Shown: positions 1 through 22,054 of the stretch, piece by piece
Layout: the number at the start of each line of letters is the position of its first letter
Position numbering within the stretch: position 1 is the first letter of the stretch
Assembly: GCF_004010195.1 (NCBI RefSeq)
Contig: NC_057718.1
Span: 73,554,234 to 73,577,690, forward strand
From: Chiloscyllium plagiosum
Lineage: Eukaryota
Length of the DNA: 23,457 nt
Reading direction: 5' to 3'
The notes under the pieces: generated by a model
The model's database searches: none
Seen by the model: the letters and a program-made list of their open reading frames with translations, nothing else
What the model was told of the DNA's origin: nothing
Position numbers and translations under genes: made by a program

Positions 1-1396
1 TTCTGCCACTAGAAGATTACATTCTGATTTTAAAATTTCTGATCACTGCTGACAATATCAAACTGTGGAAGAATAATATTCACATCCTGGCAAAACTAAA
101 ACAGCCGATGATGATGGAGAAACAAAAGGGCCACCACAACCAGAATTGATACCTTTCTGGACCTGATAAGGCCAGATTATCAATGTGGATGTCATATTAT
201 TATGGGGAGCAATAGTGATTGGCCAGAGCAAAGGTCACTGCCAGAAACTAGCAGAACTCCACCAGGGTCATCCAGGGGTTTCCAAAATGTAGATATTCAT
301 GACAGGTTATGTCTGGTGGCCAGAATTGGATGCCAACTTAGTTGTGTTTATGCAGTCGGACACAGAATGTCAACAAGGACAAAGATTACCAACAGCAGCT
401 CCCTGATACTCATGAGAATGGCCGGGCAAACCTCAGTTACAAATCGGCTATGCTGGTCCTTTCATGGGCTCAATGTTCTTGACCATTGTGTACGCCCATC
501 CAAAGTGGTTGAGTGTACATATAATTCATTCATCAAGTATGGGGATGATGATTGAAACGTTGCAAGCACCTTTTCAATACATGGCCTCCGGAGATGTTGG
601 TCACAGAAAATGGGTAACATTTATCAATAGGGAATTCGAGTATTTCCTAAAGTTGAATGTCATTCAGTATGTAAGGATAGCCCTGTACCATCCATCGTCC
701 AATGGTCTGGCGGAGAGAGCAGTCCAAACTTTGAAAGCAGGCTTAAAGAAACAGCCTATAGTTTTACTTGTGACAAGACTGTCCTACTTCCTGTTTCTTT
801 GTAGGATCACCCCCCAACAGGGATAGCTCCAGCAGAGTTACGAATGGGAAGAGATTAAACTTGATCTTCCTGCATCAGGTTAAACTAGATCTTCCTGGAC
901 CTGGGAGTGGGGAGAGAGTGAAATGGCTTCAGGAACGTCAATACCGGACATGACTCCTCTAAGCAAGAGAGACACTTTACTTCAGAGGACAAAGTTTGTG
1001 TCGAAAACAGAGTTGGCTCTGTATGGATAACAGGTATTGTTGGCACAAGATCAGCTCCCATGGCATACAAATTTCAGGTAAGAGAGGTGGTCCTGAGCAA
1101 ACATATCAACCACTTGAAAGCATATCCAGCAAGGTGTCAGAACCTATGGGTTCTCCCCTTCCACTTGCATCGAAGAAACTTCTGAGGACGAGATGGACAT
1201 GAGAGATGTCATAGTCTCAATGCCATTACTGCCTGAAGAAGAAGAGGAATTTCTTCCAAGACACTTCAGACACAAGAAGCGGGCTATGGTCTGATATACG
1301 CCACAGCATGTGAGGCAGAGTTGGAGGAAACAGACCTAGCGTGAAAACGCCCAAGGGAAGTTACTGGAAAAAGAATGGACCTATATCCTATCATTT
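1..1396 (+). mobile_element. Gypsy/Ty3 LTR retrotransposon pol remnant (integrase region), frameshifted, runs off the window start
   Basis: ORF 464-826 contains YHPSSNGLAERAVQTLK (Gypsy integrase core). Broken-frame zinc-finger remnants (LHQGHPG, YVWWP) at ~255-325. Followed by a PPT and TG. Confidence 0.9.
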
Positions 1397-1520
1397 AGAG
1401 CAGGAGGGATGTAGTGATTGGAATAAGTTCAACCAGGTAGACTGCATAGAATATGATTACTCTGATTGGGCAGTTAACCTGGTCCAATCAGGGAGTCCTG
1501 ACTGACAGGTACAAACAAAT
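1397..1520 (+). mobile_element. Polypurine tract and truncated 3' LTR of the Gypsy element
   Basis: Purine-rich agagcaggaggga (1397-1409) directly followed by TGtagtg (1410). Inverted CCAAT pair ctgattgg (1462-1469) / ccaatcag (1484-1491). No CA terminus identified, so the right boundary is approximate. Confidence 0.65.
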
Positions 1521-1972
1521 AGTTAACCACTTTTATAAAGGTTAATGTGGTCAAAAAACCACAAAATCTAACAAAACTATCAGACTGTTTGTCCTCCTTC
1601 CAGTACAGGAACAGGAATTTACTACAAGAATGAAGTCATTGCCTTCAGTTGCTGTGACAATTTTGTTCCCTATTTAGTAACTCTTTTTAGTCCTTGGAAA
1701 CTACAAGGCCAAACTGTACTGTTGACAACCCTAGTGCCATATTTGACTGAGATGAGATACTGACATATTCATATTAAGATTTTCACATTCATTATATCAC
1801 CTGCTTCACATCAAGTGCTATCAAGAGTTCACAGCCAAACCTCTGTCACAACTAGACTTGATTATTCTATTATTCTCTTGGCCATCATCACACTTAAAAA
1901 CTTAAGGTCATCTAAATTTTGCTATGCGTGTCCTTAATGTACCAAGTCACATTCACCTAATACCCCTAAACT

Positions 1973-2202
1973 ACATCGATTTCCAATCAAGCAGCTTCTT
2001 GGTTTTAGAATTTTCATCCTTGTTCTTAAATGTTCCACATCGCTCCAATATTCTGCAGTCTTCCAACCCTTAGAGTATTCATGCTTATCTTTGTGGTTGT
2101 TATGACATCGATTTCCAATCAAGCAGCTTCTTGGTTTTAGAATTTTCATCCTTGTTCTTAAATGTCCCACATCGCTCCAATATTCTGCAGTCTTCCAACC
2201 CT
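1973..2202 (+). repeat. 98-bp direct duplication with 34-bp spacer
   Basis: 1973-2070 and 2105-2202 differ at one base (tgttcc vs tgtccc). Followed by (CTAAT)5 at 2201-2225. Confidence 0.95.
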
Positions 2203-2310
2203 AATCTAATCTAATCTAATCTAATTCTAGGACTAAAATTATCTAATTAGTATCATCTAATTTTTTTTCACTCAATGGCCGTGCATTCAGCTGCCTGGCC
2301 AAAAACTCTG

Positions 2311-2500
2311 CAATAAAATCAAGAACTGTGGATGCTCGAGGTTTCTTAAACAAAAGCAGAAATTGCTGGAGAAACCCAGCAGGTCTGGCATCATCTGCAG
2401 AAGAAAGCAGAGTTCATATTTTGAGGCTGATGACTCTTCATCAGAACCACAGATGTTGTCTGACCTGCTGAGTTTCTCCAGCAATTTCTGTTTTTGGTTT
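2311..2500. mobile_element. Short Penelope-like terminal fragment in inverted-repeat configuration, with a degenerate hammerhead on the minus strand
   Basis: Arms 2357-2398 and 2449-2490 are reverse complements. Homologous to 17540-17672. Minus strand 2412-2447 reads gtt CTGATGA a gagtc atca gcctc aaaa tatg aac (GAAA decayed). Confidence 0.75.
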
Positions 2501-2765
2501 CCTAAACCTGGAGTTCCCTGCCTAAACATCTTGATCTTCTCTACTCACTTTCCCCTTTAAAGCATTCCTTAAACGTACCTTTACAACCAGCTTATGACTA
2601 TCTGCTTGAAAATCTCCTTAAATGGCTTCATATCTAATTTTGCATTTTAAAACTTCTACAAAGCACATTGGGAGATTATATTAAATGTACTGTAAAGTAA
2701 AGTTAGTATCTTCAGATTGTTTATTACATTTGTTAAAAACTAGCAGTTTAGATATGATGTTTGAA

Positions 2766-4732
2766 CACGGGTGAGGTACCAGAGGACTGAAGAATTGCTA
2801 ATGTTGTTCCCTTGTTTAAGAAGGGTAGCAGGGATAATCCAGGTAATTACAGACTGGTGAGCCTGACATCAATGGTAGGGAAGCTGCTGGAGAAGATAAA
2901 ACATAGAACATAGAACGTTACAGCACAGTACAGGCTCTTCAGCCCTTAATGTTGCGCCAACCTGTGGAACCAATCTGAAGCTCATCCAATCTACACTATT
3001 CCATTCTTGTCCATATGCCTATCCAATGACTATTTAAATGCCCTTAAAGTTGGTAAGTTTATTACTGTTGCAGGCAGTGCATTCCACATCCCTACTATTC
3101 TCTGAGCAAAGAAACTAACTCTGACATCTGATCTATATCTATCACCCCTCACTTTAAAGATATGTCTCCTCATTCTAGCCATCTCCATCCAAGGAAAAAG
3201 GTTTTCATTGTCCAACCTATCTAACCCTCTGATTATCTTACATGTCTCAATTAAGTCGCCTCTCAACCGTTTTGTGCCTCACGAAAACAGTATCAAGTCC
3301 CTCAGCCTTTCCTCGTAAGACTTTCCCTCCATACCAGGCAACATCCTAGTAAATGTCATCTGTACCCTCTCCTAAGCTTCCACATCCTTCCTTTCATGTG
3401 GTGATCAGATACTGAGGGATAGGATCTATTCCCATTTGGAGAAAAATGGGCTTATCAGTGATAGGCAACATTGTTTTGTGCAGGGAAGGTCATATCTTAC
3501 CAATGTAATAGAATTCTTTGAGGAAGTGACTAAGTTGATTGATGAGGGAAGGGTTGTAGATGTGATATACATGGACTTCAGAAAAGCATTTGATAAGGCT
3601 CCCCATAATAGGCTTATCGAGAAAGTGAAGTCGCATGGGATCCAGGATGTACTAGCTAGATGGATAAAGAACTGCCTAGCCAACAGGTGAGAGAGAGAGA
3701 GAGTAGTAGTGGAAGGGAGTTTCTCAAAATGGAGAACTGTGACCAGGTGTTTCACAGGGATCTGTGCTGGGACTACTCTTGTTTGTGATATACATAAATG
3801 ATCTGGAGGAAGGTATAGGTGGTCTGATTAGCAAATTCGCAGATGACACTAAGCAGATAGTGAAGGGGACCGTCAGACAATGCAGCAGAATATAGCTGGA
3901 TTGGAGAGTTGGGCAGAGAAATGGCAGATGGAGTTCACTCCAAGCAAATGCAAGGTGATGCATTTTGGAAGATTCAATTCAAGAGTGAACTATGCAGTAA
4001 ATGGAAAAGTCCTGGGAAAATTGATGTACAGAGAGATCTGGGTGTTCAGGTCCATTGTTCCCTGAAGGTGGAAATGCATGTCAGTCGAATAGTCAAGAAG
4101 GCATGCGGCATGTTTTCCTTCATCAAACCGGGTATTGAGTACAAGAGTTGAGCAGGTCATGTTACAGTTGCATAAGACTTTGGTTTGGCCACATTTGGAA
4201 TACAGTATAGAGGTCTGGTCACCACATTACCAAAAGGATGTGGATGCTTTGGAAAGGGTTCAGAGGAAGTTCACCAGGAAGTTGCCTGGTATGAAGGGCA
4301 CTAGCTATGAAGAGAGGTTGAGTAGATTAGGATTATTTTCAATAGAAAGACAAAGGTTGAGGACCTGATTGAGGTCTACAAAATCATGAGAGGTGTAGAT
4401 GCAAGAAGCTTTTTCCCAGAGTGGGGACTCATTTACTAAGGGTTATGAGTTCAGGGTGAGTGGGTAAAAGTTTAGGGGAGATGTGCATGGAAGGTTCTTT
4501 ACGCAGAGGGTGGTAGGTGCCTCTAATGCATTACCAGCAGAGGTGGTAAAGGCGGGCACTATAGTGTCATTTAAGATGTATCTAGACAGATACATGAATG
4601 GATAGGGAGCAGAGGGATGCAGAACCTTAGAAAATAGGTGACTGGTTTAGATAGTGGATCTGGATTGGCACAGGCTTGGAGGGCTGAAGGGCCTGCTTCT
4701 GTGCTGAGATTTTCTTTGTTCTTTGTTCTTTG
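2766..4732 (+). mobile_element. CR1 (HER1-like) LINE, 5'-truncated RT and 3' tail, decayed
   Basis: ORF fragments QHCFVQGRSYLTN, VDVIYMDFRKAFDKAPH, KFADDTK (~3833), WSPHYQKDVDALERVQR. (TTCTTTG)n tail 4712-4732. Confidence 0.95.
2899..3406 (-). mobile_element. CR1 3' fragment nested antisense inside the CR1 above
   Basis: ORF 3030-3266 (RGDLIETCKII...FFAQRIVGMWNALP). (CATAGAA)n tail at ~2902-2915. Flanking agata at 2894-2898 and 3407-3411; the host CR1 resumes after it. Confidence 0.9.
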
Positions 4733-6420: not shown

Positions 6421-6526
6421 TGGATAAATAGGTGAGGCACTGGTGGTAATGTCATTGTACTAAAATCAGAGGTAAAGCTCTTAAAATGGTTCATATCCCA
6501 ACTTGACAGCTGTTGAAATTTGAATT

Positions 6527-6884
6527 TTTTTAAATCATTCACAGGGTGAGGACTTCACTGGCTAGGCCAACATTTATTGCCCTTCCCTAGTTACCCAAAG
6601 GGCAATAAAAGTCAACTACATTGTTGTAGGTCTGGAGTCACATGTAGGCCAGACCAGGGAAGAATGGCAGTTTACTTTCCTAAAGGATATCAGTAAACCA
6701 GATGGATTTTTCCTGACAAGCAACAGTGATTTAATGGTCATTATTAGACTCTTAATTCCATATTTTTATTGTATTCAAATTTCACCATTTGCCATGGCAG
6801 GATTTGAACCTACATCTCCATACCCTTACCTATGTTTCTGGACTAACAGTTCAGCAACAACACCACTAGGCTATTACCTACCCC
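6527..6884 (-). mobile_element. Full-length tRNA-derived SINE sharing head and body with the LINE-B 5' end and tail with the LINE-B 3' end
   Basis: A box tagcctagtgg (6863-6873 rc) and B box ggttcaaatcc (6800-6810 rc). Body 6600-6710 is homologous to 7083-7190; tail 6532-6596 is homologous to 16441-16506. Confidence 0.85.
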
Positions 6885-6940
6885 TAGTTCAGTAAATTAA
6901 ACAAACGATGTGGAATTTAAAGCTAGTCTAATGAAGCCAA

Positions 6941-7056
6941 GGGCTCTTGTCCAAAATGTCGATTCTCCTGCTCCTCAGATGCTGCCTGACCTGCTGTGCT
7001 TTTCCAGCACCACACTCTCAACTCTGATCTCCAGCATCTGCAGTCCTCACTTTCTC
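6941..7056 (+). mobile_element. Short Penelope-like 3' terminal fragment with 13-bp TSD
   Basis: TSD ctaatgaagccaa at 6928-6940 and 7057-7069. Homologous to 19105-19221. Begins inside a decayed hammerhead stem II (gggc tctt gtcc aaaatgtc). Confidence 0.85.
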
Positions 7057-7556
7057 CTAATGAAGCCAATGTCATTTGGCTTAAAAATCCAGTCCCCTTT
7101 AGGGAAGGAAATCCATTGCCGTTACCTACAATGGCCTACATGTAATGCCAAGCCAAGATTATGTGGTTAATTCTTGAATGCTGTCTGAGGTGGTCCAGCG
7201 AGCCATGTTGTTCCATTAAACTGCTATGCAGAATGAGGTCAGCCAGTTGATTTAGGCACTTGAAATAGCAATGGCAAGCCCAGCCTTATCTATCCTGAAA
7301 AGTTTTCCTTCCTAACATCTTTTGCTTGTGCTAAAACTGAGAGAACTGCCTCACAGACTACTCAAGCTATAATGTAACATTGTTCTACCCATTGAATCAT
7401 GTCTTATAATGTGCTAGACTGCACTGTTAACATTCTTGGGTCTGTCCTGCAGACACACCCACTGGAGGTGTTGACATAGTGCTGTACAGTCAGGTGGGAG
7501 TTGCTGCGGGAACTCTCAACAGTGATTCTGGATTCTATGACGTCTCATTTGGTCAA

Positions 7557-7829
7557 ATTAGATTAGATTAGATTACTTCAGCCCAACATGTCCACACCGA
7601 CCCACCAAACCGCAACCCACCCAGACCCATTCCCCTACATTTAACCCCTTCACCTAACACTATGGGTAATTTAGCATGGCCAATTCACCTAACTTGCACA
7701 TTTTTGGATTGTGGGAGGAAACCGGAGCACCCGGAGGAAACCCACACAGACACGGGGAGAATGTGCAAACTCCACACAGAGAGTTGCCTGAGGCGGGAAT
7801 TGAACCCGGGTCTCTGGCGCTGTGAGGCA
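7557..7829 (-). mobile_element. HE1-type SINE, 5'-truncated
   Basis: B box gggttcaattccc (7795-7807 rc). Body ggagtttgcacattctccccgtgtctg...ccggtttcctcccac. (CTAAT)n tail 7557-7575. Confidence 0.9.
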
Positions 7830-8356
7830 AGGAAACCAAGAAACCTCCTACTGATTATCAACCACTGCTCCACCCCCACCACTACTCTCCCATCTCGATG
7901 TCCATTGTCAAGGGCAGACAATAGAATCATGACTGACCAAACTGGCCTTGTCCTGTTAGACTGGGTCTGCACCAGGTCTTAAAGGAACCAACAAGACAAA
8001 AATATGTACTTGACCTCGTCCTCATTAACTGGCACGTTGCAGATGCATGATTCCATGGTAGTATCATTAAAGCAAGTACTGCACAGCCCTTGAGACAATG
8101 TTCCATGTTCACATTTAGGGTACCCTCCATTGTGTTAGTTATAGAGGCCTACAATAGAGAAAAGGCTCTTCAGCCCATAGAGTTTGTACCAGTCAGAAAC
8201 TATATACATGTGTTCTAAGATCGATCTCAAACAAATCTAATAATTCAAGACTGGACATCCAAGAGGCACTATCGACCAGAATAAACATTAGAATTATATT
8301 TAACCACAATCTGTAATCTCATGGCCTGGTATATTCCCCTCTACTATTACATTTTC

Positions 8357-11081: not shown

Positions 11082-11700
11082 GGTGCTGAACATTGTGCAA
11101 TCACTAGGGAATACCCCCACTTTTGAACTTATGATTGAAGAATAGTCATTGATGAAGTAGCTGAAGACAACTGATCCAAGTGCACAACCCTGAGGGACTC
11201 CTGCAGTGATATGTTGAAACTGAGCTGATTGACTTCCATGTTTGGCATCCAACAACTGCAATAATCAATCTTTGTGCTAGTTAAGACTCCAACCAATGGA
11301 AAGTTTTCAACCTGATTCCCGACTCCAGTTTCGCTAGTGCTCTTTTATGCAAAACTTGGCTGAAAAATGCCTTAATGTCAAGGGCATTCACTGACATTAT
11401 CTCTGGAATTTATTTCTTTTGTCTACGTTTGGGCAAGGGATGTAATGAGGTCAGAATCCAAGTGGCCCTCATGGAACAAGCTTCAGCATCATTGAGCAGG
11501 TTATTGCTAAGCAAGCAACACTCAGCGGCACTGTTGACAACCATCTCTATAATTTAAATGATCGAGAATAGATTGATGAGGCAGCAATTAGCAGAACTGG
11601 ACTTTTCACACCTTTTGTCGAGAGGTCAAAGCTATGTGATTTTCTCCATTACCTGAAGATGTAGCTGATTTAGAACAGCTTGACTACAAATGTGGCAAGT
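11082..11700 (-). mobile_element. LINE-B RT fragment
   Basis: ORF 10956-11261 contains ITAGVPQGCALGSVVFSYFIND...DCTMFST. Homologous to ~17330-17870. Confidence 0.8.
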
Positions 11701-12958
11701 TCTGAACAAGCAAAGAACAAAGAATCTCGCAGCACAGGAACACGCCCTTTGGCCCTCCAAGCCTGTACCAATCCATATCCTCTGGCTAAACCTGTCACCT
11801 ATTTTCTAAGAATCTGTATCCCTTTGCTCCCTGCCCATTCATGTATCTGTCTAGATACATCTTAAATGATGCTATCTTTCCTGCCCCTACCACCTCTGCT
11901 AGCAATGCCTTCCAGACACCCATCACCCTCTGCGTGAAGAACTTTCCACACATATTTCCCCTAAATGTTTTCTCTCTCACTTTGAACTCGTGGCTCTTAG
12001 TAATTGAGTCCTCCACTCTGGGGGAAAAGCTGCTTGCTATCCACCTGTCTATGCCTCTCATGATTTTGTAGGCCTCAATCAGGTCCACCCTCAACGTCCT
12101 TCTTTCCAATGAAAATAATCCTAATCTACTCAACATCTCCTCATAGCTTGTACCCTCCGTACCAGGCAACATCCTGGTGAACCTCCTCTGCACTCTCTCC
12201 AAAGTATCCACATCTTTTTGGTAATGCAACCAGAACTTGTACGCAGTATTCCAAATGTGGCCAAACCAAAGTCTTATACAACCCTAACTTGAACTGCCAA
12301 CTCTTGTACCCAATACCCTTGTCCGATGAAGGAAAACATGCCGTGTACCTTCTTGACCACTCTTTTGACCTGCGTTGCCACCTTCAGGGAACAATGGACC
12401 TGAACACCCAAATATCTCTGCACATCAATTTTCCCCAGGACTTTTCCATTTACTACACAATTCGCTCTTGGATTGGATCTTCCAAAATGTATCACTCGCA
12501 TTTGTCCAGGTTGAACTCCATCTGCTTTTTCTCTGCCCAACTCTCCAATCTATCTATATTCTACTGTAATCTCTGACAGTCCCCTTCACTCTCTGCTACT
12601 CCACCGATCCTAGTGTCATCTACAAACTTGCTAATGAGGCAACCTACACCTTCTTCAAATCATTTATGTATATCACAAACAACAGTGGTCCCAGCCCGGA
12701 TCCCTGTGGGACACCACTGGTCACAGGTGTCCATTTTGAGAAGCTCCCTTCCTCTACTACTCTCTGTCTCCTGTTGCCCAACCAGCTGTCTATCCATCTA
12801 GCTAGAACACCCTGGACACCATGCGACTTCACTTTCTTCATCAGCCTACCATGGGGAACCTTATCAAACACCTTACTAAAGTCCATGTATATGACATCTC
12901 CATCCCTTCATCAAGCAACTTTGTTGTGGTTCTGTTCGCCGAGCTGGGAATTTGTGTT

Positions 12959-12998
12959 GCAGATGTTTCATCCCCTGTCTAGGTGACATCCTCAGTGC
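12959..12998 (-). ncRNA. Hammerhead ribozyme motif, CpG-decayed copy (sense to the PLE ORF)
   Basis: Reverse complement reads gca CTGAGGA t gtc a cct agac agg g gat GAAA c atc tgc. It differs from the 14249 copy by two CpG-type transitions. Confidence 0.7.
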
Positions 12999-13228
12999 TT
13001 GGGAGCCTCCTGTGAAGCACTTCTGTGATGTTTCCTCCGGCATTTATAGTGGTTTGTCTCTGCCGCTTCCGGTTGTCAGTTCCAGCTTTCCACTGCAGTG
13101 GCCGGTATATTGGGTCCAGGTCGATGTGCTTGTTAATAGAATCAGTGGATGAGTGCCATGCCTCTAGGAATTCCCTGGCTGTTCTCTGTTTGGCTTGTCC
13201 TATAATAGTAGTGTACACTACGTTGGAT

Positions 13229-14167
13229 TTACTCATGCTGGGTATCGGGTCCTTTGTCCTGGTGAGTTGTTGTCTGAGTGAAATTGCAGGGGTATCCGTT
13301 TTTGGCGAATACATTGTAGAGGTGTTCTTCTTCCTCTTTTTGCAGTTCTGGTGTGCTGCAGTGTGTTGTGGCCCTTTTGAACAGTGTCTTTATGCAACTT
13401 CTTTTGTGTGTGTTGGGGTGGTTGCTTTCGTAGTTCAGGACTTGGTCTGTGTGTGTGGTTTTCCTGTATACCTTTGTGGTGAATTCTCCATTCGGTATTC
13501 TCTGTCCTATCATGTCTAGGAATGGAAGTTGGTTGTCCTTTTCTTCCTCTCCAGTGAATCTGATTCCTGTGAGTGTGGCATTGATGATCCAGTGTGCATT
13601 TTCTATTTCTGTGTTTTTAATTATTACAAAGGTGTCATCTACATATCTGACCCAGAGTTTGGGTTGAATTTGCGCTAAGACTGTTTGTTCCAATCTTTGC
13701 ATTGCCGCTTCTGCTATGAGTCCAGAGATGGGTGAGCCGTTGATTTGTTCATATATTTGGTTGTTGAATGTGAAGTGTGTTGTGAGGCTCCGGTCCAGTA
13801 GTTTGAGTATGCAGTCTTTGTTGATAGGTTCCTCGTCTTGTTGTCTGTTCTGTATGCCCAGCAGGTTGGCTACTGTTTCTCTGGCTAGGGTTTTGTCAAT
13901 AGAGGTGAACAGTGCCGTTACATCGAATGAGACCATAGCTTCTTCCTTGTCTATATGTATATTTCTAATGATGTCCAAGAATTCCTGTGTTGACTGTATA
14001 GAGTGTCTGGATCCGCTGATCAGGTGTTTCAGTTTCTGTTGTAGTTCTTTAGCCAGTTTGTGTGATGGTGTCCCTGGTAGCGATACGATGGGTCTGAGTG
14101 GGATGTCTGGTTTGTGCACTTTAGGTAGTCCATAGAATCTGGGGGTGGTGTTATTTTCAGGTTTCAT
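13229..14167 (-). pseudogene. Penelope-type reverse transcriptase, 312-aa open fragment with internal deletions
   Basis: PRFYGLPKVHK, PLRPIVS, SFDVTALFTSI, WVRYVDDTF, LPFLD, VYRKTTHTDQVLNYESNHP. Motif B shortened (QINGSPIS, lacking the usual TPMG). GIY-YIG core missing downstream. Confidence 0.9.
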
Positions 14168-14248
14168 TCTCTGCAGGTCATTCTCTGTCGGAGGGAACTA
14201 TAAATGCCGGATGAAACATCACAGAAGTGCTTCACAGGAGGCTCCCAA

Positions 14249-14288
14249 GCACTGAGGATGTCACCTAGACAGGGGACGAAACGTCTGC
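14249..14288 (+). ncRNA. Minimal type I hammerhead ribozyme, intact core
   Basis: Stem I gca/tgc; CTGAGGA 14252-14258; extra T; stem II gtc-a-cct(agac)agg-g-gac; GAAA 14278-14281; palindromic ACGT stem III; GUC cleavage triplet ending at 14285. Confidence 0.85.
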
Positions 14289-14604
14289 AACACAAATTCC
14301 CAGCTCGGCGAACAGAACCACAACAACAAGCACCCGAGCTACAAATCTTCTCACAAACTTTGATCTACCAATTTGTTACCTCTTCAAAGAATTCTATAAG
14401 ACATAACCTTCCCTTCTGGATTAAGTGTCTTCAGTAAAATTGCCAGACTGTTGTCAGAAGCCACCATCTTTGCAGTATTACCTGGCTTTAGCAGTTCCTT
14501 GATGAAATGTGGAGTTAATCAAATTGACTGAAGACTGGCAACTATGGAATAGGGCAAGTTGGATTATTCATTTGTCACTTCTGATGGATATAAATGCTTC
14601 AACC

Positions 14605-14715
14605 TTGTTTGATTTGATTTATTGTAGTCATGCGTACCTAAGTACAGTGAAAAGCTTTGTTTGCGAGCAATACAGGCAGATCATAGAAAGGAAGGACATA
14701 CAAGTCAAAGTGAGG
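14605..14715 (-). mobile_element. Probable 3' UTR fragment of another LINE family
   Basis: (TTTGA)n-like tail followed by tttatt (AATAAA on the minus strand); clade not assignable. Confidence 0.35.
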
Positions 14716-16284: not shown

Positions 16285-16430
16285 TGTTTATTTCTCAACC
16301 AACATCACTAAAATAGAATATCTGAGCAGTTACTGCTGTTGTGCAACCTTGCTTTGAACAAATTGGTTACCTCATTTCACACACTACAACGGTATGAATG
16401 CACTTAAATCATATAGGGACTTCCTGAGAG
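16285..16430 (+). mobile_element. Decayed DeuSINE-like (SacSINE1/AmnSINE1-like) 3' fragment
   Basis: ctcaaccaacatcactaaaa...tgctgttgtg...cttgct...aaattgg...ctacaac matches my recollection of this SINE body; not verified by search. Confidence 0.5.
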
Positions 16431-17092
16431 AGATTATTTTAAATTCATTCATGGGATGTTGACGTTGTCAGATAGACCAACATGTATTGACCATCCCTAA
16501 TTGCCCTGGAGAAGGTGATGATGAGCCACCTTTTTGAACTGCTGCATTCTTGATGTGTAGTGACACCAACAGGTCTGTTAGTAAGGAAGATTTTTATCCA
16601 GCAACAGTCCAGTAACGGTATTCCAGCTCCAAGTCAGGATGGTGTTTGACTTGGAGGCAAACTTACAGATGGTGGTACCCCCGTGCATCTACTGCCCTGT
16701 TCTTCTAGATAGTTGAGGTCATGGACTTGGAAGGTGCTATCAGGCGAGCCTTGGTGAGTTACTAGAATGAATCTTGTAAATGTTGTACATTGCTGCCACT
16801 GTGTGATAGTGCTTTGTCCTGGATGGTGTCAAGTTTCTTGACTGTGTTGAAGCTGCACTCATCCAGGCTAGTGGAGAGCACATTCCTGAATTCTGCCATG
16901 TGGACAGACTTTGGGGAAACTGGAGTTTAGTTAATTGCTGCAGAATTCCTAACTGCTGACCTGCTCTTGTCATTACAGTATTGATATGGCTGATCCAGTT
17001 CAGTTCTTGATCAGTGGTAACCCAGAATGTTGACACTGGAGGATTTAGTGGTAGCAATGCCATTGAGCATAACGGAGTGATGGTTAGATTCT

Positions 17093-17206
17093 CCGGGTGC
17101 TGGCAGGTGGGACTAGATTGATTTGGGATATCTGGTCAGCATGGATGTGTTGGCCCAAAGGGTCTGTTTCCATGCTGTACATTTCTATGACTTTATGACT
17201 CTATGA
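17093..17206 (+). mobile_element. CR1 3' UTR/tail fragment inserted in LINE-B
   Basis: Near reverse complement of 20940-21050; ends in (TATGACTC)n. Confidence 0.9.
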
Positions 17207-17539
17207 TCAATGCCTGGCACTTGTGCAGTGTGAATGTTACTTACCAATTATCAGCCCAAGTCTGGATGTTGTCCAAGTTTAGCTGCATATGAACGTGGAC
17301 TACTTCATTATCTGAATTGTCATAAGTGGTGCTGAACAATTCAGTGAGCATCTTCTATTCTGAGTTCATTATGGAAGGAAGGTTATTGATAAATCAACCA
17401 AACTTTGTAGGGCATACCACACTAAGTTGAGGAACACCTGCCAACCACAGTCATTGTCTCTGCTAGTTGAAATTGTATTGAGCACAGAGAGTTTTTGCCT
17501 GACTCTGATTGAGTTCAGTTTGCTAGGGCTCCTTGATAT

Positions 17540-17672
17540 TCGGAAGAAGGGTCAGTGGACCTGAACTGTTAACTTTGCTTTCTCTCCACAGATGTTGCCA
17601 GACCTGCTGAATTTTCCTAGCACTTTTTGTTTTTGTTTCTGATTTTCAGCCTCTGCAGTACTTTGTTTTTTT
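17540..17672 (+). mobile_element. Short Penelope-like 3' terminal fragment with 11-bp TSD and decayed hammerhead
   Basis: TSD ctccttgatat at 17529-17539 and 17673-17683. Starts tcggaagaagggtcagtggacctgaactgttaac (decayed core around a ggtc/gacc stem). Confidence 0.8.
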
Positions 17673-18371
17673 CTCCTTGATATCATACTTGATGATATGC
17701 TGGCTTGATGCTTGGAAGGACTGTTGACAATCTTTGACACCAATTAGCTGATAGGACAATCATTGGCTAGGCTGGATCTGTCCTGATTTTTGTGCACAAG
17801 ACATATCTGAGCATTTTGTCACATTGTTGGGTAGATGCTAGTGTTGTAGCTCTACTAGTATAGCTTGGTGAGTGACTCAGCTGATTCTTTAATAGAGCAC
17901 AAGTCTTCAATGCTTTTGCCGGATTTTTGTCAGAGTCCATAGGCTTTGTAGTATCCAGTGCATTCAGCCATTTTTGATATCAAATGAAGTGAATCAGCTT
18001 GGCTGCGACCTGGCATCTTTCCTTCTAGTGGTCTTATGTAGAAACCAAGGTAGATCATTCACTCAATACGTTTGGCTGAAAATGGTTTCAAATACTTAAT
18101 ACGTTTGCACTGTTGTGGTTGGTCCACCATAATTGAGGTATAGGATATTTGCGAAACCTCCACTTTTTAGTTGCTTGATTGTCCAATATAGTTCATGACC
18201 AGATGTGGCAGGACTCAGAGCTTAAATCTGATCCATTTAATTATATGATTACTCAGCCTTGTCTATTGCTTGCTGCTTCCACTGTTTGACAAGTAAACAG
18301 TATTGTAGCTTCACTGGTTTAGAATGTCTGGTTCTGCCTCTACAGACCCTCATGAACTTTTTAGTTTGAGT

Positions 18372-19078
18372 TGTTATGGAGGTGTAAGGGGTACTGTACC
18401 TTTAAGAAAGTTGAAATTTAGCAAGGACTTAGACAAGCACACAGGGTGCTGAAGAATTTATGATGTAACTTTTGGTTCAGAACAGCTAGCACTGGCTAGG
18501 TTGCCTGGAGACAAAAACAAATTCAAATTTGGCCAATTAGTTTAAATTATACCCCAAAATACCAACCTCCAATCAAGTTTGAATTTAAGATATTAACAAT
18601 ATTAAAGCCAATGAAATGATCTGATGCTTTGGGGTATAAGACTGGGAAGAATTAAACACTTGAAGGGAGAACTGTCAAGCCACCAGCATGTACAGACTGC
18701 CCAACATACGACTTTCTTAAAGGTACCTTTATTTATCAATAGCCTGTGAAACAGAAATCCCTAAGAAGAAGAAAATCTACAGAGGGAGATACCGTGGGAA
18801 GATTCAACAGCTGCCTGGTTTTGAAATTTGAGTTTTTGCTAAATCTTACTCAGGGGTTTTATTGGACTTGTATTATAGAAGGGAAAGTAGGTTAGAGGAA
18901 GGAGTTGTGAATAGTTATTAGTTAATTATCCTCTGTTGTACTTTAAGTAATAAAGTTGTTAATTTTTACCTTAAATAGTTCTTGGCTTCTTGAATTTTAA
19001 TAGATTACCACACAGGGTAAATTTTTTCTGTGTTGCTGGTTTAAGTTAGCAGGGGAGGGTTTACCCTGTGTCATAACA
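18372..19078 (+). mobile_element. Solo LTR (707 bp), probably Gypsy-type
   Basis: Inverted termini TGTTATG...CATAACA. 4-bp flanks gagt (18368-18371) / aagt (19230-19233, after the duplicated terminus). CCAAT at 18533, 18569 and 18608; TATAAG at 18635; AATAAA at 18949. Confidence 0.85.
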
Positions 19079-19080
19079 AA

Positions 19081-19221
19081 CACTCTCTGCTCATTCCTGA
19101 GGAAGGGCATGTGCCCGAAACGTCGAATCTCCTTTTCCCTAGATGCTGTCTGACCTGCTGTGCTGTTCCAGCAATAAAGTTTCAGCTTTGATCTCCAGCG
19201 TCTGCAGACCTCACTTTCTCC
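19081..19221 (+). mobile_element. Short Penelope-like 3' terminal fragment with 10-bp TSD
   Basis: TSD tcataacaaa at 19071-19080 and 19222-19231. Homologous to 6941-7056 with the same 3' end (cctcactttctc). Internal AATAAA. Confidence 0.88.
19093..19128 (+). ncRNA. Minimal type I hammerhead ribozyme, intact core
   Basis: Stem I attc/gaat; CTGAGGA 19097-19103; extra A; stem II gggc(atgt)gccc; GAAA 19117-19120; palindromic ACGT stem III; GUC ending at 19124. Confidence 0.87.
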
Positions 19222-19414
19222 TCATAACAAAGTCTATCCGTTTAACATAGTGGTGATAGTGTAATTAATCCTTAGTTTGAAGAGGAGTCTTTGTCGCAAC
19301 GAGGACTTTGTGGTGGTCACAAAGGTAGATTGGTCAGGACGATCAAGAGCTACAAGTTCCTAAAAATTGAAGTCCTACATACAGAGTACATTTTGTACCC
19401 TTTCCATCCTCAAA

Positions 19415-19697
19415 GGTGGTTCGTGGTTAGCACTGCTACCTCACAGCACCAGGAACCTGGATTCAATTCTATCCTCTGGCAACTGTTTGTTTGTATTTTC
19501 ACATTCTCCTCATGTCTGCATGGATTTCGTCTGGGTGCTCTGGTTTCCTCCCACAGTCCAAAGAAGTGTAGGCAAGGTAGAATAGCCATGGGAAATGCAG
19601 GGTTGTAGGGATAGGGTGGGATGCTCTTCAGAGCGCCAGTGTCGACTTGATGGTCTGAATGGTCTATTTCCACACTGGAGGGATTCTGTGATTCATG
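19415..19697 (+). mobile_element. HE1-type SINE
   Basis: Head gtggttagcactgctacctcacagcaccagg, B-box-like ggattcaattc, body ggtttcctcccacagtccaaaga, CR1-like tail tttccacactggagggattctgtgatt. Confidence 0.88.
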
Positions 19698-20698
19698 TTT
19701 CCTCCAAGTGTGTTGTTTAACATGGAGAAGTACAGATTCTTCAGCCAAGGCGGAGCAGTTTAGGTGGTAATGAACAGGAGATTTCCTTGTCCATCTATGA
19801 CCCACTGTCATGAGATTTCATGCCAGAGTCTATGTTGAGGACTCCAAGGACAATTCCTTTGTGAGTATATATCACTGTGATGCCACTTGAAATAGAACTG
19901 CCCTGCCAGTGGGACAGTGTCTGACAGGGATGATTCTGAGTATGATTATGCCAGGCTGTTACCTGAATAGTCTGCAGGACAGTTCTCCCAATCAATTTTA
20001 ACGTAAGTCCCCAGATGGTAGTAGGAAGCTTTTCCAAGGTCAACTTGATTATGTGTTGTCATTTCTGATGCATAGTCTGTTGTCAGGTGGTCCACCTGGT
20101 TTCATTCCCTTCATTACAACTGAAATAGTTTGACATGACTGGGCGGCTTGCCAGACCATTACACAGATAGTTATGAGTCAACCACATTGATCAATGTGGT
20201 TCACTATTTTTTAATGACAACTATTTTGACCACTCTCGAGTTTACTGGTATACATCAGCTCATTGACGAACTTTCCAGAACCTCTACAATTTCATCCTTT
20301 CTTTATATCAGAATCTTTAGATTTGTTTTGGTCACAGTTCCACCTTTAGCTAAACAAACTACTTCAGTACTTTCATTTCATGTATTGTGTATGAGGTCAG
20401 AATTAGTCTTTTCCCCAATAAATATTATTTTAGTTATTAATAAAATGAAGTGTTTGTTACATAACTTTGCCAACTTCTCTTTCCCTTCCAACATCATTAT
20501 TCTTTTTTCCCCCAAGGTTCAACTGCATGTTCAATAAATCCTTTTACTAACAAATGCAAATAATATCTTGCTAATCTTAATTTGTCTCAGTCTCACATAC
20601 TATCTCTTAATATCTTGTCCATCTCAAATTTAATTCTATCGTAGTATTCCTACGGCGTGTGGACACAGGCCATTCAGCCCGTCAAGTCCACACTGACA

Positions 20699-20939
20699 CT
20701 CCAAAGAGCAACCGACCATGTCCTATCCCTGTCACCCTGTATTTCCCGAGGCTAACCCATCTAGCCTACATATCCTACATATCAAGGGTAATTTAGCATG
20801 GCTAATCCACCTTCACATCTCCAAAGAGCAACCGACCATGTCCTATCCCTGTCACCCTGTATTTCCCGAGGCTAACCCATCTAGCCTACATATCCATAGA
20901 TTTCAAGGGTAATTTAGCATGGCTAATCCACCTTCACAT
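20699..20939 (+). repeat. Tandem duplication, 120/121-bp units
   Basis: 20699-20818 and 20819-20939 are identical except a short patch (tacata vs atagatt). Confidence 0.95.
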
Positions 20940-21560
20940 AGAGTCATAGAATCCTAGAGATGTACAGCATAGAAACAGACCCTTCGGTCCAACCTGTCCA
21001 TGCCGACCAGATATCCCAACCCAATCTAGTCCCACCTGCCAGCACCCGGCCCATATCCCTCCAAACCCTTCCTATGCCTCTTAAATGTTGCAATTGTACC
21101 AGCCTCCACCACATTCTCTGGCAGCTCATTCCATACACATACCACCCTCTGTGTGAAAAAGTTGCCCCTTAGGTCTCTTTTATATATTTCCCCTCTCACC
21201 CTAAACCTATGCCCTCTAGTTCTGGACTCCCCAACCCCAGGGAAAAGACTTTGTCTATTTATCCTAAGCTTGCCCCTCATAATTTTGTAAACCTCTAAAG
21301 CAAATCTTAGCAGGACTTATACACTTAATGGTAAGGTCCTAGGGAGTGTTGCTGAACAAAGAGACCTTGGAGTGCAGGTTCATAGCTCCTTGAAAGTGGA
21401 GTCGCAGGTAGATAGGATAGTGAAGAAGGCATTTGGTATGCTTTCCTTTATTGGTCAGAGTACTGAGTACAGGAGTTGGGAGGTCATGTTGCGGCTGTAC
21501 AGGACATTGGTTAGGCCACTGTTGGAATATTGCGTGCAATTCTGGTCTCCTTCCTATTGG
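20940..21560. mobile_element. CR1 insertion with 5' inversion
   Basis: 20940-21297 is the CR1 3' end on the minus strand; 21298-21560 is an upstream CR1 segment on the plus strand (LEYCVQFWSPSY). Confidence 0.88.
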
Positions 21561-21753
21561 GATTTTGGCAGGAAACCAGAACACCTGCAGGAACAGACAC
21601 AGGGAGAATGTTCAAACTCCACACAGTCTCCCCGACGGTGGGATTGAACCCGGGTCCCTGGCGCTGTTGGCTTTTCACTTTTTCTTATTTTAATCGTACC
21701 AAAGGACCATTTCTATTTTAATTGATTTCAAACTTGTAGTTCTGTATGTCTAT

Positions 21754-22054
21754 CATGGTGGCTCAGTGGTTAGCACTGCTGTCTCACTGCACCAGGGACC
21801 TGGGTTTAATTCTACCCTGAGTTGACTGTCTGTGGGGAGTTTGCACACTCCCCCCGTGCCTGGGTGGGTTTCCTCCGTGAGTCTAAAGATGTGTGGGTAA
21901 CGTAGACTGGCCATGCTAAATTGCCCATAGTCTTCAGAGATATGCAGACTAGGTGGATTAGAAATGGGAAATGGAGGGTTACAGAGATAGGGGATGCTCA
22001 TCAGAGGGTTGTTGCAGACTCGATGGGCTGAATAGCCTGATTCCACATTCTAGG
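21754..22054 (+). mobile_element. HE1-type SINE, near full length
   Basis: A box tggctcagtgg, B-box-like gggtttaattc, body ggagtttgcacactcccccgtg...ggccatgctaaattgccc. Confidence 0.9.

Follow-up and report, generated by a model that had tools for sequence, protein, structure and literature searches.

A tRNA-like head forms the 5′ end of an old single-ORF LINE family in a shark genome

The division between LINEs and SINEs rests on the rule that the former are mRNAs made by Pol II and that elements transcribed by Pol III do not encode protein. A locus on contig NC_057718.1 of Chiloscyllium plagiosum raises the question of whether a coding LINE can begin with the head and body of a SINE. The locus lies in a window of 23,457 nucleotides, which is the whole stretch of DNA analyzed here. 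An initial annotation, made from the letters alone, had read it as a LINE whose 5′ end is a tRNA-SINE head and body, apparently without ORF1, and had proposed a SINE-LINE chimera that propagated as a family.

The stretch at 6430–8350 is the decayed 5′ 1.27 kb of an abundant LINE family of 3.28 kb. It contains a tRNA-like head, a SINE body, a linker, and an endonuclease, which are interrupted by four younger inserts (Table 1). After removal of the inserts, the copy is collinear with positions 5–1265 of the family consensus and 71–75% identical to it. The endonuclease is broken. Alignment of 7060–7548 to consensus 153–691 gives 74% identity (score 320 versus 34 for shuffled sequence), and alignment of 7892–8350 to consensus 842–1265 gives 75% (score 235 versus 35). 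This layout agrees with much of the initial annotation. The B box reported at 6488–6499 is present in decayed form, the body reported at 7083–7190 extends over about 7060–7187, and the endonuclease, placed at about 7300 after about 110 bp, has codons beginning near 7299 past a linker of about 110 nt. Two points require amendment. The head and the body are both present, but are separated here by an antisense SINE at 6522–6885 and a mini-repeat at 6941–7056. The stretch is LINE sequence by its head, body, linker, and endonuclease, but RT was absent from its plus strand and the copy stops at 8350. The mini-repeat is 81% like 19103–19225 in the same window.

Table 1. Features of the two LINE copies in the window and of the inserts in the first copy. 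Consensus positions refer to the family consensus.
Feature	Position	Strand	Remarks
tRNA-like head, consensus 5–112	6430–6526	+	69/97 identical; score 51.5 versus shuffle maximum 33
A-box remnant	6436–6446	+	Within the head
Decayed B box	6488–6499	+	Within the head
Full partner SINE (the LINE's head, body, and 3′ tail)	6522–6885	−	Inserted in the A-rich stretch past the head
LINE 5′ region resumed, consensus 114–150	6895–6934	+	30/36 identical; score 30 versus shuffle maximum 26, weak alone
Younger mini-repeat	6941–7056		Flanked by 13-bp target-site duplication 6928–6940 / 7057–7069
SINE-type body of the LINE, consensus 153–293	about 7060–7187	+	Alignment to consensus
Body-to-endonuclease linker, ~110 nt	7188–7298	+	Alignment to consensus
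N-terminal part of APE endonuclease, with stops and frameshifts	7299–7548	+	PF14529 found on sister copy L076
Younger unrelated tRNA-type SINE, antisense insert	7557–7829	−	Kin at 19439–19596, 21557–21667, 21780–21934
Endonuclease remainder and next region, consensus 712–782 and 842–1265	7837–8350	+	Alignment to consensus
Insert of ~90 nt	8137–8226		Within 7837–8350
3′ part of the second copy with RT, C-terminus, and poly(A) tail; consensus about 1389–3282	16423–18337	−	
Second copy, 5′ part: body end, linker, endonuclease, consensus about 265–1079	19230–20192	−	SINE inserted

The second copy in the window, cited by the initial annotation as an independent instance of the junction on the opposite strand, extends from 20192 down to 16423 and includes the RT and the 3′ tail. 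The body-to-endonuclease junction is common to both copies (66% over 438 aligned nt; score 146.5 versus a shuffle maximum of 86), but no tRNA head is present in the second. Its 5′ end falls within the body, near consensus 265, and this copy therefore supports the junction of body and endonuclease, not the head. Further RT-region fragments of the same family lie at 11082–11706 and 14414–14608 (minus strand).

Several other repeats share the window. A young Penelope-like element occupies 12921–14326 and contains a 322-residue RT frame (13229–14197, minus strand, PF00078); it is bounded by inverted end segments of 130 bp with 97.7% identity to each other. An insert in the second LINE copy, at about 18380–19075, has TG...CA-type ends and looks like a solo LTR. 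A broken, integrase-like remnant of an LTR element lies at 115–1185 and matches rve_3 weakly (E 0.004). Another tRNA-type SINE, perhaps HE1-like, is present in several copies, at 7557–7829, 19415–19674, 20657–20940, and 21557–22047.

The head-first architecture is real and family-wide, and the head is the family's own 5′ end. A junction query yielded 40 scored matches in the genome. The body lies directly upstream of the endonuclease, in the same orientation, at 21 of 29 other loci, and the junction thus recurs beyond the two copies in the window. Head, body, endonuclease, RT, and tail are collinear in 18 of the 40 stretches fetched, a set selected on its 5′ match; 14 of the 18 were called by script and four were read from a table, and the copy L233 is uninterrupted over 3.2 kb. 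A query centered on the endonuclease (consensus 392–1140) was used against selection for the head, and 30 of its 41 matches were examined. The 5′ ends of these 30 copies lie in the head (18), the body (10), or the linker (2). Four of the 18 reach the head across a later insert or gap, and two represent one duplicated locus. No alternative upstream sequence shared at the junction was found among the 30 copies. A 3′ query gave 42 matches, from which 20 RT-selected copies were picked. Fourteen are truncated inside the ORF, one runs past the edge of the fetched stretch, one is ambiguous, and the remaining four reach the start of the endonuclease, all of which run on into the head or body. The junction of body, linker, and endonuclease is identical in 58 of 58 aligned 5′ regions, save for decay in individual copies and indels of 3 and 6 nt between subfamilies. 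Contigs of two other organisms likewise break off at this 5′ start (185 and 746 records) and at the SINE junction.

These copies belong to an old elasmobranch non-LTR retrotransposon family, whose spread proceeded by target-primed reverse transcription that often left copies truncated at the 5′ end. The examined copies are dead and lie 7–24% from the consensus. Pieces of the LINE protein are 80% identical to a Heptranchias protein over 314 residues and 85% identical to a Mobula protein over 119 residues. Target-site duplications, sought around 14 full-length LINEs and 26 SINEs, did not emerge, as the scores did not exceed those obtained with flanks swapped. The copies are old, and retrotransposon insertion without target-site duplication is known (PMC4494074). 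The flanks of the copies are unrelated, except in the pair L117/L118. This pair sits on separate contigs and shares at least 1.2 kb of flank at 99.7% identity, as either a segmental duplication or an assembly duplicate.

The majority consensus of 18 fetched copies, to which all consensus positions refer, is 3,282 nt long; a separate CpG-restored 5′ consensus was derived from 58 copies. The element consists of the head, a body extending to position 293, a linker of ~140 nt, an EN-RT frame, a 3′ UTR of ~45 nt, and poly(A). A single stop-free frame of 978 codons (295–3228) contains EN and RT motifs and has Pfam matches to both. No ORF1 was found in the consensus, and the roughly 435 nt on the 5′ side of the endonuclease hold no long ORF. 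The suspected lack of ORF1 is thus confirmed by the 18-copy consensus with its one EN-RT frame, but it is not an unusual trait, being normal for the CR1-Zenon group as described in the available text of PMC13343379. Within the linker lie a short AUG uORF and an in-frame extension of basic character. The AUG at consensus 350 opens a 35-codon frame that overlaps the start of the endonuclease and is kept in 38 of 64 copies. No in-frame AUG precedes the endonuclease in the consensus. Full-length invertebrate relatives, 36–40% identical, mostly have a Met shortly before the endonuclease.

At the 3′ end, AATAAA motifs occur at consensus 3240 and 3271, and both LINE and SINE copies terminate in A-rich tracts. 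A variable run of 1–5 T lies 3′ of AATAAA, between the conserved end and the A tail. A T run of at least two is present in 20 of 38 tails versus 12 of 65 internal A-runs (P = 4e-4). In mammalian T+ SINEs, as portrayed in the accessible part of PMC8466645, AATAAA likewise precedes a T run of variable length that leads into the A tail, but these elements are short and non-coding, and the family consensus here has a single T at that spot. The same source reports that T runs of T+ SINEs lengthen in old genomic copies. The tail T run is therefore weak evidence and may reflect age-related drift.

The head of the CpG-restored consensus contains an A box at 11–21 and a canonical B box at 74–84. ARAGORN made no tRNA call on the head, and two LINE heads gave no match to the Rfam tRNA model. 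The partner SINE matched this model weakly at 6797–6873 (15.5 bits, E 8.6), below the cut-off of 29. The predicted fold of the head is unremarkable (z = −1.17). A tRNA origin of the head is suggested only by the A and B boxes.

The family comprises two subfamilies, A (79 copies) and B (15 copies), which were compared over 94 distinct copies at supported non-CpG sites. Their ORFs differ by 56 synonymous and 31 non-synonymous changes, with a dN/dS of 0.17. In the head plus body, only 7 of 277 non-CpG sites separate the two subfamilies, and none lies in the boxes, versus 8.7% of synonymous sites (P = 4e-5). Both subfamilies are headed, both lack runs of four T (T4), and the head variants sort with the ORF subfamily. 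The low dN/dS and the conserved head in A and B indicate that both master lineages coded a selected protein and that the head was constrained. Sequence exchange with the abundant SINE could be an alternative cause of the low divergence of the head. Among dead copies, the boxes are conserved at 0.84 and 0.78, no better than the ORF at 0.88. Collinear copies, a sole 5′ end, and the dN/dS together support the initial proposal of an autonomous element with one EN-RT ORF and a Pol III-type head, propagated as a family.

If Pol III reads the whole element, the sense strand should be free of oligo-T, and the consensus fits this expectation. Runs of at least four number 0 for T, 13 for A, 11 for C, and 8 for G over the 3,282 nt. 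The five occurrences of TTT fall short of the 29.1 predicted by base content (P = 5e-8) and of the 14.7 under a first-order model (P = 0.003). The ratio of observed to expected is 0.17 for TTT, and 0.91, 0.83, and 1.36 for AAA, CCC, and GGG, respectively. None of 46 NTT codons is followed by T, versus 6.2 expected, and phenylalanine is encoded by 15 TTC and 2 TTT codons. No non-canonical terminator of the TVTTT type was found in the consensus. The absence of T4 alone is not significant under fixed protein and codon usage (P = 0.13 and 0.07); the signal resides in TTT and codon choice.

Natural copies of the family contain 0.76 T4 per kb (observed/expected 0.37 over 145 kb), versus 4.9 per kb (1.47 over 21 kb) in other LINE-type coding fragments at the same loci. 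The same-genome controls are CR1-type LINEs and LINE-type fragments, with no ORF1-less low-T LINE among them. A CR1 consensus has 6 T4 in 961 nt. A Penelope-like control (16% T, 1.1 kb) has no T4 either, with fewer than one expected. Among 80 metagenome relatives, all 49 long N-free ORFs carry 3–49 T4 runs, including three at 21–24% T. In the closest relative with DNA, L141 (36.6% identical), an in-frame Met and 20 T4 runs are present, and no B box lies within 700 nt. The oligo-T logic has been used in reverse to exclude Pol III for SINEU (PMC4494074).

On these sequence features, Pol III transcription of the autonomous LINE appears reasonably likely. The head would act as an internal Pol III promoter of type 2 that drives the entire element, and the sense strand would have been purged of oligo-T terminators under Pol III transcription. 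The RNA would end at or after the A-tail, and the EN-RT protein would be translated from an RNA without a normal cap. Since no in-frame AUG precedes the endonuclease, translation would need a non-AUG start or a −1 shift from the 35-codon AUG uORF, which is speculative. For a −1 frameshift near consensus 389–395, four of five subfamily differences fit and pooled variants did not. The fuller proposal has, in our judgment, a slightly better than even chance. It holds that a coding LINE is read end to end (3.3 kb) by Pol III and translated without a normal cap or in-frame AUG, as an "autonomous SINE" whose internal deletions would be ordinary SINEs.

The human L1 promoter was reportedly claimed in 1995 to be Pol III-dependent; to our knowledge, this claim is not generally accepted. 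Of two runs on the same sample, one, a poly(A) single-cell run, contained 1,854 family reads (at 80% identity) distributed across 30 of 30 bins, and the other contained none. The reads derive from many copies, 98% continue into unlike sequence, and they do not discriminate between polymerases. Two points of background weigh against the Pol III reading: RNAs made by Pol III are widely regarded as poor substrates for translation, and Pol II can also be recruited by some Pol III promoters (PMC6023835, available text).

The headed 5′ end could also be genuine and yet be transcribed by Pol II, either as a SINE captured as a 5′ UTR or through recruitment of Pol II by the head. This account is possible, though we consider it less likely than not. 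LINEs do swap 5′ ends, SINE-like 5′ UTRs have precedents in Ingi-3_AC and RTE-1_DAn as mentioned in the accessible text of PMC5786205, and the AUG uORF and both AATAAA motifs would suit an ordinary mRNA. The depletion of T runs would then stem from another pressure, such as avoidance of U-rich processing or decay signals, or codon bias of the lineage. Base-composition biases are common in LINE ORFs according to the available part of 10.1101/788562, and codon-aware nulls leave the T4 absence by itself at P 0.07–0.13. Such pressures fit less well with a depletion that is specific to T runs of the sense strand, as judged from the four homotrinucleotide ratios, and that is absent from CR1-type LINEs of the same genome and from the 49 relatives. 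Nor does Pol II transcription account readily for A and B boxes that are unchanged between subfamilies.

Very unlikely, and already largely refuted, is repeated fusion at insertion, whereby reverse transcription switches from LINE RNA to SINE RNA and the master LINE has some other 5′ end. The partner SINE is abundant enough to provide templates (9,455 first-look candidates), and template switching is a proposed route of head addition in SINE evolution in the text available from PMC5786205. The junction, however, is the same in all 58 aligned 5′ regions and bears no SINE tail, the head variants follow the ORF subfamily, and no other 5′ end was seen among EN-selected and RT-selected copies. Chance adjacency or local duplication, with a SINE landing 5′ of a truncated LINE, has a negligible probability and is refuted by the EN-selected, 5′-selected, and RT-selected copy sets: nested repeats do fill the window and a SINE of the same family did insert in the 6430–8350 copy, but the arrangement recurs on many contigs (21 of 29 other loci) with flanks unrelated save in L117/L118. 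Even taken together, these last two explanations are improbable.

The partner SINE, from 29 copies, consists of LINE 1–293, at about 93% identity, joined to 3222–end, the last ~60 nt. A second short family, exemplified by L228:5501–5584 and 39 other matches, joins LINE position about 318 to about 3218. Its breakpoint differs from that of the main SINE, and the LINE thus has at least two short non-coding derivatives made of its two ends. The SINE may be an internal deletion of the LINE rather than the donor of its 5′ end. The description as a SINE-LINE chimera fits a full coding LINE with a Pol III-type head, but it implies a direction of origin, which may have run the other way. Deu, Meta, and UCON3 domains were not matched in the body, either by eye against the alignments in the supplement of PMC7245038, as far as that supplement was available, or in two motif searches on one SINE locus. 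A body motif is absent from the metagenome contigs.

The family is probably CR1-Zenon. This assignment follows from the absence of ORF1, the poly(A), the 3.3-kb size, and the elasmobranch host, which fit the description in the accessible text of PMC13343379. CR1-Zenon of elasmobranchs (Stuart et al. 2026, PMC13343379) and lepidopterans (PMC6740152) likewise has no ORF1, one APE-RT frame, and poly(A), as given in the available parts of both papers. It is likewise about 3.3 kb long and found in sharks and rays, as stated in the portion of PMC13343379 at hand. In RT trees built without the CR1 RT of the same genome and with no labeled Zenon reference, the family falls among unnamed single-ORF proteins with weak support (0.54–0.73), and its placement shifts between runs. 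Its RT is 45–49% identical to those proteins and 27–45% to the CR1-type fragments of the window. The nearest relatives are invertebrate single-ORF elements. A PDB search returned distant L1 and R2 matches only.

Two other assignments were rejected. Canonical vertebrate CR1 has an esterase ORF1, or descends from elements with one, and a non-poly(A) tail (PMC13343379, available text), whereas the family has no ORF1 and a poly(A) tail. A short non-coding SINE2 does not fit the size of 3.28 kb or an ORF under purifying selection.

The family also differs from the described Zenon elements. The word tRNA does not occur in the main text on Zenon in Stuart et al. (PMC13343379), as available, whereas the family here starts with A and B boxes. 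Its endonuclease is not preceded by an AUG in frame, and its sequence avoids T runs. Persaeus, a short element derived from Zenon, has no tRNA homology or Pol III promoter according to the same text. CR1-Zenon-like LINEs are mentioned for the whale shark in the available part of 10.1101/443036, and CR1-Zenon tails are known partners of bivalve SINEs in that of PMC11481361. No published description of a tRNA-headed or Pol III-driven Zenon was found in a search that covered sources other than Dfam, Repbase, and most subscription papers. The tRNA-like head on a coding, probably Zenon-type LINE may be new, and the absence of ORF1 in elasmobranch CR1-Zenon is already known.

Among SINEs, Bov-tA, SINE2-1_ACar, and others likewise have a tRNA head on LINE-derived sequence and are short elements made from a LINE's ends (PMC5786205, available text). 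These are non-coding, with the head added to a deleted LINE, whereas here a full coding LINE is headed. In the available text of the same survey, the LINE 5′ parts identified in SINE bodies belong to RTE and Vingi alone, and SINEs are described as unable to encode protein. RTE-1_DAn and related elements, known from a brief mention there, are likewise LINEs containing tRNA-like sequence, but belong to a different clade. SacSINE1 and the Deu-SINEs of cartilaginous fishes are likewise tRNA-headed SINEs of sharks with a LINE-derived tail (PMC5499810, accessible part). SacSINE1, compared by its description and not by its sequence, differs in having a Deu domain and an L2-2_CM-type tail.

If Pol III transcription is correct, the rule that divides LINEs from SINEs would be broken by a family present in many copies in sharks and rays, which combines a promoter for Pol III with an ORF of 3 kb that is free of terminators. 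It would represent a natural mRNA made by Pol III, and translation of such an RNA would become testable. The LINE is a direct counterpart for a whole SINE, head and body, and bears on the question of where SINE bodies originate. Even under Pol II transcription, annotation of shark repeats needs care, as the SINE and the LINE have their first 293 nt in common. Pieces of the LINE ORF are contained in the predicted shark proteins P0032, P0033, P0043, P0051, and P0280, including an anoctamin-7-like and an aldo-keto reductase-like protein, by exonization or annotation error.
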